A stretch of 8,824 nucleotides of DNA from a virus (IMGVR_UViG_2675903509_000012); one strand, 5' to 3'. Positions 657-8,824 are shown, counted from the stretch's first letter. The notes: generated from the letters alone by a model not told the origin. A program made the numbers and translations.

Positions 657-1601
657 TCAATCCCATAATTCTATTGGCAATGCCTTCGTTACAGCTTCAA
701 AAAGCGGCGGAGGCACTGCATTACCAACCACCGTGTATTTCATGCCAAGACTTGCAGCATTTGTTTCTGGAAACACTAGATCCTCAAACCCTTGTAATAG
801 TGCTGCCTCTCGAAAACTGAATCTGCGAGCTCTCCGATCCTCAACAAATCTCCATTCATCAGTTCTTACTTTCTCCATCGGAGGACTGACAGGATGCAAC
901 GGCATATGCCTTGCATTAGCAACTATTGTCTTTGAAATTTGATCCCAATCCTGGCGACGATTGCGAGACATATAATACCAATGGAATCCCATATCATAAA
1001 ATTCACCTTCTGGCCATTCAGGTAAATGCCCTATAGCATCTTTAATAGTAACATAGTTGACGCCAGTTGCTGGCCCATGAGTTGGCTGAGGGAACTCGTA
1101 CTTAACTTTGAAATCATTACGGATTCCTACGATAAATATTCTTTTTCTTTCCTGCGCTACTCCATATTCAGCCGCATTTAAAACTTTTGCGGAAACAGTA
1201 TAACCTGCTTCAGTAAAAACCCTGATCTGGTCAAATAACAAATGCTCAAAATTTTTTCTAACCATACCAGACACGTTTTCTACTATAAAAGCTTTAGGCT
1301 TTATATTGTTTAAAGCTCTAGCAAACTCTAAATAAAGAGTATTAATTTTTCGATCGGCTTTACGCGCACCACCCTGGCTGAATCCCTGACATGGATAACA
1401 ACCTACCAGCAAATCAGATTTAGGAAAAGTAGTTACATCAGCAATATTGCCTAATATGTAATCAGTTTCTGGATGATTGGCAATATAAACATCGCGCGCA
1501 TACGGCAAGATATCGTTGGCCATAAGCACATCAAAGCCGGCTCTCAAAACCCCCGCATCGGAACCACCGCATCCAGAAAAAAGTGAAACTACTGTTGGCA
1601 T
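657..1601 (-). CDS. DNA (cytosine-5)-methyltransferase, small Type II-like m5C MTase
   Basis: 314 aa with the canonical m5C-MTase motifs in order: SLFSGCGG (motif I, AdoMet binding), GCYPCQGFS (motif IV, catalytic Pro-Cys), FIVENVSGM (motif VI, ENV), QERKRIFIVG (motif VIII), FREAALLQGFED (motif IX), TVVGNAVPPPL (motif X). ATG at 1601-1599 is preceded by the SD AGGAGG (complement of 1605-1612). Confidence 0.9.
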   Translation of the reverse strand: MPTVVSLFSGCGGSDAGVLRAGFDVLMANDILPYARDVYIANHPETDYILGNIADVTTFPKSDLLVGCYPCQGFSQGGARKADRKINTLYLEFARALNNIKPKAFIVENVSGMVRKNFEHLLFDQIRVFTEAGYTVSAKVLNAAEYGVAQERKRIFIVGIRNDFKVKYEFPQPTHGPATGVNYVTIKDAIGHLPEWPEGEFYDMGFHWYYMSRNRRQDWDQISKTIVANARHMPLHPVSPPMEKVRTDEWRFVEDRRARRFSFREAALLQGFEDLVFPETNAASLGMKYTVVGNAVPPPLFEAVTKALPIELWD

Positions 1602-5655: not shown

Positions 5656-5849
5656 TTCCAGACCCTCCGGCTTTTCAGAAAGGTCAGAGCCTTTTTTAAC
5701 GGACTCTGTTTTTTGGTGCGGATAATGATTCCCTTGCGACCCTTCCCGTGGGTGATGGTGAAGTCAATCGCCCTGGGGCTTTCGTTACGCAGTAACTGAG
5801 CAATACAACGCGGCTCATTCATAATCACAACCCCATCCACAAAAGCCAT
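5652..5849 (-). CDS. Hypothetical small protein between cox and B (position of P2 orf78)
   Basis: 65-aa ORF whose stop overlaps the B start (ATGA). An alternative in-frame ATG at 5822 lies 2 nt after the cox stop. Support is positional only. Confidence 0.5.
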   Translation of the reverse strand: MAFVDGVVIMNEPRCIAQLLRNESPRAIDFTITHGKGRKGIIIRTKKQSPLKKALTFLKSRRVWK

Positions 5850-6112
5850 GCATCACGCTGTTCAACCGGTCGGTTATAAAACGCCTCACGTACAGCGCGA
5901 TTAAACTCAGGAATGAAAACCCATTTTTCACCGGCACGAGCCTTCGGTTTGCAAGGATCACGCAATTCAATAATTGGTAATTTATTTGCCTTCACCATTT
6001 CACTGACGGCTGTCTTTGGCTTCCCTAATAAATCAGCAAATTTATCCACATGAACCGCATCAAGCGGATACTGAATCACATAATTTTCAGCGTCCATATA
6101 TGGTACCCTCAT
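5825..6112 (-). CDS. cox: Cox-like excisionase/directionality factor and early-promoter regulator
   Basis: About 90 aa, first gene of the early operon and divergent from the C repressor. The C-terminal pattern KLPIIE...AGEKWVFIPEFN...RDAWLLWMGL resembles P2 Cox as I recall it. The internal ATG at 6097 has a better SD (GAGGG) than 6112 and gives a 90-aa product. Confidence 0.8.
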   Translation of the reverse strand: MRVPYMDAENYVIQYPLDAVHVDKFADLLGKPKTAVSEMVKANKLPIIELRDPCKPKARAGEKWVFIPEFNRAVREAFYNRPVEQRDAWLLWMGL

Positions 6113-6233
6113 AGGATCCAGCCCTTTCTAAACCACTCAAAACCGTTTAGACGCTGGTTTATTCTCAAATCAATGGAACCTATATAGGTTCCAGTTTTGA
6201 GGGAATTTAGTCCCTATATAGGCACCATGTCAA
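6113..6233. promoter_or_regulatory. Immunity switch between cox and C, with candidate repressor operators and early promoter
   Basis: Perfect 18-bp palindrome GGAACCTATATAGGTTCC at 6175-6192 and a second CCTATATAGG at 6213-6222. On the - strand a consensus -35 TTGACA (complement of 6228-6233) is followed about 18 bp later by a -10-like TAAATT (complement of 6204-6209), so the repeats flank the candidate early-promoter -10. Confidence 0.55.
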
Positions 6234-6527
6234 ATGAAATTAAGCGAAAAGATTAAGGCCTTGCGTGAGGCTGAAGGGCTAAGCCAATCAAAATTCTGTG
6301 AAATCATAGAGTTACCGCTAAGCACACTTAAAAAATATGAAGGAGGAAACTTTGAACCCGGTGGCACAGCTTTGCTAAAAATCACTATGCATCCCACATT
6401 CCAAAAATATGCTCTATGGCTTATGACAGATAAAACCGCGCCGGACGCAGGACAAATCGCACCGGCTCTCGCGCACATTGGGCCAGAGTCAACAGAGTCC
6501 AACCACTCCGCGAAAAGGATTGGCTAA
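6234..6527 (+). CDS. C: P2 C-type immunity repressor
   Basis: 97 aa (P2 C is 99) with an N-terminal helix-turn-helix-like region. The C-terminal half (HPTFQKYALWLMTDKTAPDAGQIAPALAHIG) closely resembles P2 C as I recall it. Divergent from cox and upstream of int, as in P2. Confidence 0.85.
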   Translation: MKLSEKIKALREAEGLSQSKFCEIIELPLSTLKKYEGGNFEPGGTALLKITMHPTFQKYALWLMTDKTAPDAGQIAPALAHIGPESTESNHSAKRIG

Positions 6528-6596
6528 CTCTATATAAAGATTACATTTTCACCATTTGCTACCAAGATGGTGAATACAGCGCCGGAGGGCTTTCTT

Positions 6597-7577
6597 ATGG
6601 CAATTAAGAAGCTCGATGACGGTCGCTATGAAGTGGACATTAGACCTCGCGGTCGCGACGGAAAACGCATCCGCAGGAAATTCGAAAGAAAAGCTGAAGC
6701 ACTAGCATTTGAGCGATACACAATCGCCAATGCCAGTCAGAAAGAATGGGGAGGCCAGCGAGCAGACCGCCGAACTTTGAGTGAGTTGCTGGACATCTGG
6801 TGGAAATATCACGGGCAAAACCACGAGCATGGAACAAAAGAGTTTAATCATCTACTCAAAACCATCAGCGGCATAGGTGATATACCAGTGAGCCGGATGA
6901 GCAAAAGGGCTTTGATGGATTATCGTTCCATGCGACTACGTGATGGTATCAGTGCCGCAACGATAAACCGTGACATGTACCGATTATCCGGCATGTTCAC
7001 AAAATTAATTCAATTGGATGAATTTTCCGGGCAACACCCAATTCACGGACTGCCGCCACTGGCGGAGGCCAACCCTGAAATGACGTTCCTGGAAAAAGCA
7101 GAAATCGAAAAACTGTTAAATGTTTTGGCTGGTGATGACTTACTTGTCGCGCTTTTATGTCTGAGCACTGGAGGAAGATGGACGGAAGTTGCCACGCTAA
7201 AACCAGCACAGATTACAAATTGCAGGGTTACCTTCCTGAAAACCAAAAACGGTAAAAAGCGAACCGTGCCGATTTCTGAGGAACTGGAGAAAAAAGTTAA
7301 AGAGGAGGCCAGCGCCAAATTATTCAAAGTTGATTATGAGAAATTTTGCGGGATTTTACGCAGAGTGAAACCTGATATACCACCCAATCAGGCAACCCAC
7401 ATCCTGCGGCATACATTCGCAAGCCATTTCATGATGAATGGGGGCAATATAATCGCACTGCAACAGATTCTGGGACATGCGAGCATTCAGCAGACGATGG
7501 CCTATGCGCACCTTGCGCCTGACTACCTGCAAAATGCCGTCGCTCTGAATCCACTAAAAGGCGGAGTGACGTTATAA
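6597..7577 (+). CDS. int: Tyrosine integrase, P2 Int family
   Basis: N-terminus MAIKKLDDGRYEVDIRPRG matches the P2 Int start as I recall it. C-terminal catalytic signature of tyrosine recombinases: R (TGGRWTE), HxxRH (HILRHTFASH), LGH and the tyrosine in MAYAHL. ATG 6597 has the SD GGAGGG 7 nt upstream; the ORF-track start at 6567 lacks one. Confidence 0.9.
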   Translation: MAIKKLDDGRYEVDIRPRGRDGKRIRRKFERKAEALAFERYTIANASQKEWGGQRADRRTLSELLDIWWKYHGQNHEHGTKEFNHLLKTISGIGDIPVSRMSKRALMDYRSMRLRDGISAATINRDMYRLSGMFTKLIQLDEFSGQHPIHGLPPLAEANPEMTFLEKAEIEKLLNVLAGDDLLVALLCLSTGGRWTEVATLKPAQITNCRVTFLKTKNGKKRTVPISEELEKKVKEEASAKLFKVDYEKFCGILRRVKPDIPPNQATHILRHTFASHFMMNGGNIIALQQILGHASIQQTMAYAHLAPDYLQNAVALNPLKGGVTL

Positions 7578-7590
7578 ATTTCCCCCTCTG

Positions 7591-7612
7591 AGTGTCCACA
7601 TAGTGTCCACAC
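7591..7612 (-). repeat. Tandem direct repeat, candidate Int arm-type binding sites
   Basis: GTGTCCACA-TA-GTGTCCACA on + strand (TGTGGACAC twice on - strand, 11 bp centre to centre), starting 14 bp after the int stop. This matches the P2 Int arm-site consensus TGTGGACA as I recall it. Confidence 0.45.
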
Positions 7613-7696
7613 TCAAGAAATTTTGAAACCACTCCAAACCCTTACAGCTTTCGATAAGTGACTGTTTTTACTTTTGATTGCATGTAAGTAATTGAT

Positions 7697-7723
7697 AAAA
7701 AAAACCCCCACATCATGTGGGGG
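7697..7723 (-). terminator. Rho-independent terminator of cpxP
   Basis: GC-rich hairpin (CCCCCAC / GTGGGGG arms, 5-nt loop) at 7705-7723, followed on the - strand by a run of eight U (complement of the A-run 7697-7704), about 40 bp after the cpxP stop. Confidence 0.7.
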
Positions 7724-7763
7724 AAGACAGGGATGGTGTCTATGGCAAGGAAAACAGGGTTTA

Positions 7764-8264
7764 CTACTGGGAACGTGAGTTGCTACTACTCAATAGCTTC
7801 AACGATGAACTTTTTTGCCATTGCGTCACGTCACGCAACTGCTCCATTCGTTGTTGATGTTTCTCGTTTAAAACCGCTTGCTGCTCCGGCGTTAACAGGC
7901 GATACATTTGGTTGCGGACTTTTGCCATCTCAACCTGACGAGCAATTTGCTCATTCGCCATTTTTTCTGCCTGTGCGCGCACAGCGTTTTCATCAAAATT
8001 TTCTGCGGTGACAAGGCGATGCATTGTCTCCAGTTCGCTAACATTAACAGGAGGCTGTTCGTGCCGGGCCTGTTGCATAAGATCTCGCATCTGCTGACGC
8101 TGATGTTCGGTTAAACTTATGCCGTCGAACATATGGCTCTGCGTACTGCGCTGCGTAAGTTCTTCACCCGGATGCCAGTTATCGCCTGAACCGACTTCAG
8201 CAGCGTGGCTTAATGAACTGACTGCCAGCGTTGAGGCCATGACGGCAGCGGTAACTATGCGCAT
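7764..8264 (-). CDS. cpxP: Periplasmic Cpx-pathway adaptor/inhibitor CpxP
   Basis: Translation matches E. coli CpxP as I recall it ([21 protein letters not shown] signal peptide, [15 protein letters not shown]). The ATG at 8264 has better SD spacing (GGGAG) than the listed 8267. Confidence 0.93.
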
Positions 8265-8342
8265 CATTTGCTCCCAAAATCTTTCTGTCGCGATTCAACG
8301 ATAGAGAGTTTACGATTCAGGCTGCAAACATGCGTCAGGGGG

Positions 8343-8413: not shown

Positions 8414-8530
8414 ATGAATAAAATCCTGTTAGTTGATGATGACCGAGAGCTGACTTCCCTATTAAAGGAGCTGCTCGAGATGGAAGGCTTCAACGTGATT
8501 GTTGCCCACGATTCTGTGCGTATGGTTTAG
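8414..8530 (+). pseudogene. cpxR: cpxR 5' fragment: first 33 codons intact, then unrelated sequence and a stop after 5 more codons
   Basis: MNKILLVDDDRELTSLLKELLEMEGFNVIVAHD matches the CpxR N-terminus, with SD GGAGG upstream. After codon 33 (about 8512) the frame reads SVRMV-stop instead of GEQALDLL. Confidence 0.75.
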
Positions 8531-8667
8531 CCTCTAACCTTTACCGCTTTACGCCACCGCAAGCCAAATACATTGATATACAGCCCGGTCATAATGAGCA
8601 CCGCACCTAAAAATTGCAGACCCGTTAAGCGTTCATCCAACAATAGTGCCGCACTTGCCAGTCCTGG
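8527..8667 (-). pseudogene. Orphan C-terminal fragment resembling a membrane transporter (EamA/DMT-like), no start codon
   Basis: The - strand encodes ...PGLASAALLLDERLTGLQFLGAVLIMTGLYINVFGLRWRKAVKVRG-stop, a hydrophobic helix plus basic tail typical of a transporter C-terminus. The frame is closed by a stop about 54 codons upstream with no Met. Family assignment is a guess. Confidence 0.35.
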
Positions 8668-8824
8668 CGATATGTGGCGTGTTAGTCCAGCTGTGGACTT
8701 TTGGTTCGCTACCTATTATCGCGCTGGGGCTGGCATTTAGTTTTGCCTTCTACGGCCTGGTGCGCAAGAAGATTGCGGTAGAAGCACAAACCGGCATGTT
8801 AATTGAAACCATGTGGCTGCTGCC
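8664..8824 (+). pseudogene. rarD: Internal fragment of rarD-like permease, no 5' end, runs off the right edge
   Basis: Translation LAICGVLVQLWTFGSLPIIALGLAFSFAFYGLVRKKIAVEAQTGMLIETMWLL matches the middle of E. coli RarD as I recall it. Upstream of about 8664 the same frame reads unrelated sequence (IVPHLPV) and has no start codon. Confidence 0.6.

Follow-up and report, generated by a model that had tools for sequence, protein, structure and literature searches.

In the P2/λ convention, attP is written P-O-P′, where P′ is the arm that adjoins int and O is the core that phage and host have in common. In phage P2 this core is 27/28 bp long (AAATCTCCCTTACACGGGCTTATTTTTT) and is the 3′ end of the CyaR sRNA. 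In the annotation of NC_001895, the P2 site consists, from the ogr side to the int side, of P arm, IHF site, core, Cox region and P′ arm. Both arms have paired TGTGGACA sites, the Cox footprint falls between core and P′ arm, and int reads toward the core. Integrases of the P2 type have the arm-site consensus tgTGGaCa (Nilsson and Haggård-Ljungquist, PMC3448106), and it has been proposed that Cox acts on attL (PMC3936717).

The closest described relatives of the prophage considered here are WΦ and L-413C, which have the same integration position, MG1655 4104392, and of which L-413C has an attP core identical to that of WΦ (PMC3448106). The genome paper of E. coli W gives cpxP-fieF as the insertion site of prophage Wphi1, and names rybB, cyaR and ssrA as other sites of P2-type or related elements, cyaR being a P2-type site (PMC3032704). 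In addition, for a Salmonella prophage of 31.7 kb, a preprint of 2026 tests by PCR for the empty site in the fieF-cpxP interval. Both the cpxP-fieF site and the specificity of WΦ and L-413C for it are therefore already published, which the initial annotation had not recognised. On the host side, the cpxP 3′ UTR is the source of CpxQ, a 58-nt Hfq-dependent sRNA that is cut out by RNase E, covers nearly the entire UTR and has its seed region at the 5′ end (PMC9438474, PMC6755755).

The DNA analysed here, termed the window, is the whole stretch of 8,824 nucleotides of the viral record IMGVR_UViG_2675903509_000012. Positions 7578-7763 of the window are almost certainly the integrase-proximal junction of a P2-like (Peduovirus) prophage of the WΦ/L-413C type, lying in the known site downstream of cpxP. 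The prophage occupies the published WΦ/L-413C attachment site between cpxP and fieF. Judged by protein identity, its int-C-cox module is of the L-413C type and its integrase is of WΦ specificity. It is the att junction of a heterobivalent tyrosine integrase, belongs to the WΦ specificity group, is of a textbook type and has already been described. Three points are mildly new: the overlap of the core with CpxQ, the side of the crossover as read from a single nucleotide polymorphism, and a candidate Cox element that co-varies between phages.

Position of the core and place of strand exchange

The junction was mapped by comparing four kinds of site, attP, attB, attL and attR, in a six-site alignment (Table 1). 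In empty E. coli sites, that of K-12 included, the match to the window begins only at 7694 and extends to the right. Phage genomes in circular permutation (L-413C, P24B2, FSL SP-004 and others) follow the window from the early region through int to 7740, and right of 7740 they diverge into the ogr-side arm. Since phage identity extends up to 7740 and host identity starts at 7694, the common segment is 7694-7740. In the alignment, the window is made up of the L-413C int-side arm, the core and the K-12 cpxP flank, while the other junction of the lysogen is made up of the K-12 fieF flank, the core and the L-413C ogr-side arm. By the P2/λ naming the junction in the window is attL, B-O-P′, which is read as P′-O-B in the window, the cpxP flank being B.

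Table 1. Features of the int-side junction and of the neighbouring phage and host genes, in window coordinates
Feature	Position	Strand	Basis
cox, directionality factor and switch repressor, L-413C type	5825-6112	-	Pfam Phage_Cox
C immunity repressor, L-413C type	6234-6527	+	Pfam HTH_3
int, 326-aa tyrosine integrase, WΦ/L-413C specificity	6597-7577	+	Pfam Int_N and Phage_integrase; identity
Phage-only P′ arm (int-proximal)	7578-7693	+	Same sequence as in L-413C attP; no counterpart in empty E. coli sites
Int arm-type site, copy 1	7591-7600	-	AGTGTCCACA on plus strand; PMC3448106 consensus; homologous P2 repeat
Int arm-type site, copy 2	7602-7611	-	One helical turn (11 bp) from copy 1
Candidate Cox (excisionase/RDF) element	7623-7648	+	AAACC at 7626 and 7636, 10-bp spacing
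Candidate IHF site	7685-7697	-	Perfect consensus, TATCAATTACTTA against WATCAANNNNTTR; spans P′/core boundary
att core (common core O), 47 bp, GATAAAAAAAACCCCCACATCATGTGGGGGAAGACAGGGATGGTGTC	7694-7740		attP/attB/junction comparison
cpxP rho-independent terminator (stem 7705-7723, U-tract 7697-7704)	7697-7723	-	Terminator scan and RNA fold; wholly within core
Putative CpxQ sRNA, 58 nt	7697-7754	-	Counted back 58 nt from U-tract end
T/G polymorphism, loop of terminator/CpxQ hairpin	7713		Also L002 2520 and L006 846
Proposed overlap GGGATGG, dyad AGACA (7725-7729) / TGTCT (7737-7741)	7730-7736		Proposed; dyad read from sequence
cpxP, host gene	7764-8267	-	Annotated cpxP in all 5426 genomes; Pfam LTXXQ

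The core agrees with attP of both L-413C and WΦ at 47 of 47 positions and with K-12 attB at 46 of 47, the one difference being a polymorphism in the hairpin loop; many empty genomes also match it at all 47. The window itself ends without the distal junction, and the second copy of the core was seen in complete lysogens. One of these, NZ_AP022036, is 100% identical to the window across 7578-8300 and has the prophage order fieF/ogr to int/cpxP. The initial annotation had proposed searching for a core repeat at the distal prophage end, and an exact copy does lie at the fieF/ogr end of this lysogen (L001 9208-9254; the other copy is at 40777-40823). It had also proposed a comparison with an unoccupied cpxP-downstream region, and the empty site of K-12 defines attB. 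The core is a direct repeat in lysogen M217 too (L006 827-873 and 39063-39109).

The polymorphism in the loop bears on where within the core the strands are exchanged. Position 7713 is T in the window and in every attP read directly (L-413C, WΦ, FSL SP-004), and G in K-12 and a minority of E. coli, most E. coli having T. From an evenly spaced listing, the number of empty E. coli genomes with the G allele is roughly estimated at 900, and among phage records none exactly matches the G version of attP. In lysogens M217 and 167, the fieF-side core carries G and the cpxP-side core carries T. The G-bearing fieF-side junction has an exact match in roughly at least 90 genomes (from a spaced listing), and the G-bearing int-side junction with this arm has an exact match in no genome. 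If a phage with T entered a host with G, this pattern points to an exchange in 7714-7740, the part of the core that lies beyond 7713 toward cpxP, and this placement is somewhat favoured. Strain 167 carries the same IS-disrupted prophage as M217, so the side of the crossover rests on few independent events, and the G-type lysogens examined are probably one clone and one integration event. The Salmonella phages STYP1 and FSL SP-004 have cores identical to the E. coli core and thus provide no extra crossover markers. GTDB species representatives were also scanned for the ogr-side junction string GGTGTCACAAAAAAGCAC, which gave 10 unrelated chance matches and no diverged-core lysogens. Exchange would take place at the cpxP-proximal end of the core, probably around GGGATGG, a 7-bp spacer that together with its flanking dyad plausibly represents core-type sites around an overlap.

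An exchange in the terminator palindrome, with its stems CCCCCACA and TGTGGGGG as inverted core-type sites and an overlap at about 7711-7717 in the loop, is unlikely, even though this palindrome is the most conspicuous dyad in the core. Tyrosine recombinases usually use inverted core sites around a short overlap of 6-8 bp, an arrangement that the palindrome offers, and if there was a single event, a heteroduplex across 7713 could by chance have resolved to G on the fieF side and T on the cpxP side. However, the T/G difference at 7713 would then sit in the overlap, where heterology normally blocks λ-type recombination, and the lineage with the G allele was nevertheless lysogenised. Moreover, the opposite arrangement, in which the int-side junction carries G, is found in no genome. 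If the exchange does lie within 7714-7740, the terminator joined to cpxP in lysogens, and with it the 3′ part of CpxQ, would be phage DNA carrying the phage loop allele T.

The initial annotation had rightly recognised a prophage-host junction next to int and an insertion just downstream of cpxP, both of which are borne out by the four-way comparison. It had placed the att core and the junction within 7613-7704, abutting or overlapping the cpxP terminator, and this placement is very improbable. Part of it stands, as phage-only DNA ends at 7693 and the core begins at 7694, both inside that interval. However, only 11 of the 47 bp fall inside it, the common segment does not abut the terminator but includes it entirely, and 7613-7693 has no counterpart in empty sites, so that the alignment of attP, attB, attL and attR refutes the proposal. 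The core had been misplaced by about 36 bp; the region described, 7578-7723, ends inside the core, which extends to 7740, and leaves 17 bp of it outside. The segment 7613-7693 is instead the spacer of the phage P′ arm and, by analogy, would be the Cox-binding region.

Arm-type repeats and candidate Cox and IHF sites

The TAA stop codon of int (7575-7577) is followed on the plus strand by atttccccctctG-AGTGTCCACA-T-AGTGTCCACA-ctc, the first of the two exact AGTGTCCACA copies beginning about 13-14 bp past the stop. Two direct repeats had been noted at this place as a 9-mer, GTGTCCACA (7592-7600 and 7603-7611), and were said to match the P2 Int arm site. Both copies are present, although the repeat unit is 10 bp with an 11-bp period and not a 9-mer, and the likeness to P2 is confirmed by the consensus of PMC3448106 and by the P2 annotation. 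The minus-strand form TGTGGACA lies at 7593-7600 and 7604-7611, which are its only matches in the whole 8824-bp window, against 0.19 expected. The repeats fit the published P2-type consensus tgTGGaCa, and the identical pair occurs at the identical place in attP of L-413C and WΦ. For P2, the annotation of NC_001895 gives a nearly identical pair, GAGTGTCCACACAGTGTCCACAG, as the P′ arm bound by Int. There, the int ORF overlaps its own P′ arm repeats, whereas int in the window stops 13 bp short of them. A second pair, CTGTCCACATAGCGTCCACA (the P pair), lies outside the window and has the same orientation as the P′ pair; it is present in attP of L-413C and, in the complete lysogen, at the distal junction. 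By consensus and homology, the tandem repeats are P2-type Int arm sites.

It is most improbable that the repeats are instead a chance duplication or serve another function, such as that of a regulatory or terminator element at the 3′ end of int. Two TGTGGACA matches somewhere in the 8.8 kb did arise in 3 of 200 dinucleotide-preserving shuffles, a count in which adjacency of the copies was not demanded. The two copies in the window, however, are adjacent and in 11-bp phase, they are kept in P2, WΦ and L-413C while the neighbouring spacer diverges, and they have a counterpart of the same orientation on the other arm. Adjacency, helical phasing and conservation thus make a chance origin very unlikely, and the location is the region annotated in P2 as Int-binding, with a match to the published consensus.

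With the repeats read as Int arm sites, and by homology with P2, Int would be a heterobivalent tyrosine recombinase. Its N-terminal domain would bind the two TGTGGACA repeats at 7591-7611 as well as the second pair on the ogr-side arm outside the window, and its core-binding and catalytic domains would act inside the core, the 47 bp of which are identical in attP and attB.

A candidate element for Cox lies in the spacer that separates the core from the arm sites. Its part at 7625-7640 (GAAACCACTCCAAACC) agrees at 14 of 16 positions with the phage’s own Pe-Pc switch at 6129-6144 (TAAACCACTCAAAACC), a score reached by 0 of 100 shuffles. In WΦ, the aligned arm element TCCAGTCCCTTATAGGT agrees at 16 of 17 positions with the WΦ switch (TCCAGTCCCTTCTAGGT), and this arm element differs in sequence from that of the window, the WΦ Cox being only 79% identical. 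Because arm and switch elements have changed together between the two phages, 7623-7648 is probably a Cox site, which Cox would bind for excision. A search of the arm with the P2 cox-box consensus TTAAASNCM gave only matches with 2 mismatches and was dropped, Cox here being just 38% identical to P2 Cox. In the open-access literature searched, no text on a WΦ Cox/attP footprint was found.

The candidate IHF site is kept in WΦ as TATCAATCACTTA, despite divergence of the neighbouring spacer. Since the mapped IHF site of P2 is on the other arm, the site at 7685-7697 is a candidate only, and its assignment is tentative. IHF may bend the DNA here.

Integrase specificity and identity of the prophage

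The mechanical ORF of int begins at an upstream ATG at 6567, and all annotated relatives begin at 6597 (MAIKKLDDGRYEV...), a start that aligns with the N-terminus of P2 Int. Int is 99.7% identical to that of L-413C, 98.8% to that of WΦ and 49.9% to that of P2. For C, the corresponding values are 100%, 56% and 42%, and for Cox 98.9%, 79% and 38%. The first ~30 aa of Int, its arm-binding part, are nearly identical to P2 Int, which fits a common arm-site sequence combined with a different core. The initial annotation had not seen the canonical P2 attP core and had expected a different site specificity. The P2 core is indeed absent from 7578-7763, and the expectation is correct, as Int shares just 50% identity with P2 Int but 98.8-99.7% with the integrases of WΦ and L-413C.

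Among the known systems, L-413C (a Yersinia/Escherichia phage, AY251033) carries essentially the same module, its arm and core being identical to the window over 7578-7740. It is a free phage with an attP, while the site in the window is recombined with the chromosome, and it differs in the cargo left of gene A, where the window has a methyltransferase module (1-1816). WΦ (NC_005056; Wphi1 of E. coli W) has the same 47-bp core, arm repeat pairs and host site and a closely similar Int, but the spacer between its arm sites and core has diverged, its putative Cox element is of different sequence, and its C and Cox are of a heteroimmune type. P2 resembles the window in the layout of its attP described above and differs in its core, its host site and its integrase.

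Two further readings of the junction can be set aside. It is next to excluded that this is a canonical P2 prophage, inserted by P2 Int acting by chance at a secondary site near cpxP: the gene order and most genes are P2-like and this int even occurs in several database records under the name “phage P2”, but Int, C and Cox have the low identities to their P2 counterparts given above, the P2 core is absent, and a perfect 47-bp attP/attB core is unlike a secondary site, so that this reading is refuted. Equally, an assembly chimera is refuted, since, although from about 8507 the window joins cpxR to fragments of eamA and rarD in an order found in no complete genome, the P′ arm-core-cpxP junction is present in 793 of the 5426 complete E. 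coli genomes, with matches that cover 80% or more of a 223-bp query, and the best genome match is 100% identical across all 223 bp. The junction is thus that of a WΦ/L-413C-type prophage, and no observation speaks against this identification. For annotation, this fixes the prophage boundary at 7693/7694 and the core at 7694-7740, and it assigns the integrase to the WΦ specificity group.

Several other observations concern the remainder of the window and the related records. At the right end, 8507-8824 is chimeric: cpxR (start 8415) follows the reference only to 8512, and next to it come the reversed 3′ end of eamA (~8507-8665) and an internal fragment of rarD (8664-8824). These pieces are contiguous in no complete E. 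coli genome, the joints share a few bases of microhomology, and the genes eamA and rarD are paralogues of the EamA family; the chimeric end is probably an assembly artefact. At the left end, 1-1816 is low in GC (38-42%, compared to 50-56% in gene A) and is missing from the prophage of NZ_AP022036, which is otherwise 98% identical. It encodes a C-5 cytosine DNA methyltransferase at 657-1601 (minus strand), for which the top PADLOC match is DruM/type II MTase. A convergent ORF that has no Pfam or PADLOC match ends at 649. The two may form a restriction-modification pair that occupies the cargo hotspot known from P2 downstream of gene A.

NZ_AP019189 (L006) and NZ_CM132961 (L019) represent a widespread clinical E. 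coli clone with a degenerate prophage at the cpxP site. In this prophage, gene A is split by ISEc12, IS150 and ISEc22 are inserted as well, and ogr is separated from the att arm by an additional ORF of 642 nt; the prophage is locked in, yet int, C and cox are intact. A 32,330-bp separate record in an E. coli assembly, NZ_JBQJRQ010000002.1, is 96% identical at 16233-16286 to window 7685-7738 and lacks cpxP, and it looks like a P2-like genome that was assembled as its own replicon and carries attP. The records KC618326/NC_041848, OU784549/NC_070904 and OU784750/NC_070905 are named “Escherichia phage P2” or “Peduovirus P2” and have a WΦ-type int and core in place of the canonical int and attP of P2. 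This means that records labelled P2 may carry a WΦ-type int, which is a naming trap for best-hit annotation. The prophage-derived records KC618326, STYP1 and vB_EcoM-569R9 include the host cpxP-side flank.

The core, the cpxP terminator and CpxQ

The 3′ UTR of cpxP is 67 nt long and ends in a rho-independent terminator. The position, terminator and length of 7697-7754 are consistent with CpxQ, which is accordingly placed there as a putative feature. With this placement, the core would cover nt 15-58 of CpxQ, leaving the 5′ seed, nt 1-14, as host-only sequence; the left edge of the core lies 3 bp past the U-tract. An Rfam scan of the window at the gathering threshold found no family. The one notable match of a permissive scan was Hrs1 (RF02628, “Hfq-regulated sRNA 1”) at 7697-7769 on the plus strand, opposite to CpxQ, over the full model length and below threshold (44.5 bits, gathering score 56.4, E = 9e-8), so that neither scan confirmed CpxQ by a model. 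This match may reflect the same conserved cpxP 3′-UTR locus, modelled on the other strand.

In the lysogen, cpxP/CpxQ is intact at the int-side junction, and at the other junction a second copy of the terminator precedes an unchanged fieF upstream region. Between phage late transcription and fieF there are both the phage ogr terminator and the second terminator copy. No promoter-like site able to drive the second core copy was found at the fieF-side junction. The phage in this way carries a replacement copy, so that insertion keeps cpxP/CpxQ intact and also leaves an intact terminator upstream of fieF.

An insertion of this kind has precedents. It has been described for phage 186 and tRNA genes, where insertion occurs at the 3′ end of the gene and a replacement 3′ end is carried by the phage (PMC3448106). 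In 186, Fels-2/SopE-phi and the P2-like prophages at rybB and cyaR, as in the window, attP/attB identity reaches the 3′ end of an RNA gene, and the gene is therefore rebuilt after insertion. These integrators target free-standing tRNA, tmRNA and sRNA genes, whereas the target in the window is an sRNA derived from a 3′ UTR together with the terminator of a protein gene. In the open-access literature searched, no paper was found that ties CpxQ to prophage integration. The overlap of the core with CpxQ may never have been spelled out, yet it is a direct consequence of two published facts.

The WΦ core, described before CpxQ was discovered, would thus be the 3′ three-quarters of CpxQ together with the cpxP terminator. 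The P2-like phage described here follows the rule of its relatives at cyaR, rybB and ssrA, in which the 3′ end of a regulatory RNA is targeted and a spare copy is carried. With CpxQ placed as above, phages of the WΦ type would have in their attP a copy of the Hfq-binding CpxQ 3′ module (nt 15-58, terminator included) and would deposit it in about 15% of complete E. coli genomes, and this second copy would lie, without a promoter, between the phage late genes and fieF. It is improbable, but conceivable, that lysogeny has regulatory consequences, either through altered stability or termination of CpxQ or through a chimeric RNA resembling CpxQ that arises when transcription of the phage ogr/late operon reads through. 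If this were true, lysogeny at cpxP would be a modifier of the Cpx envelope-stress response and not a neutral insertion.
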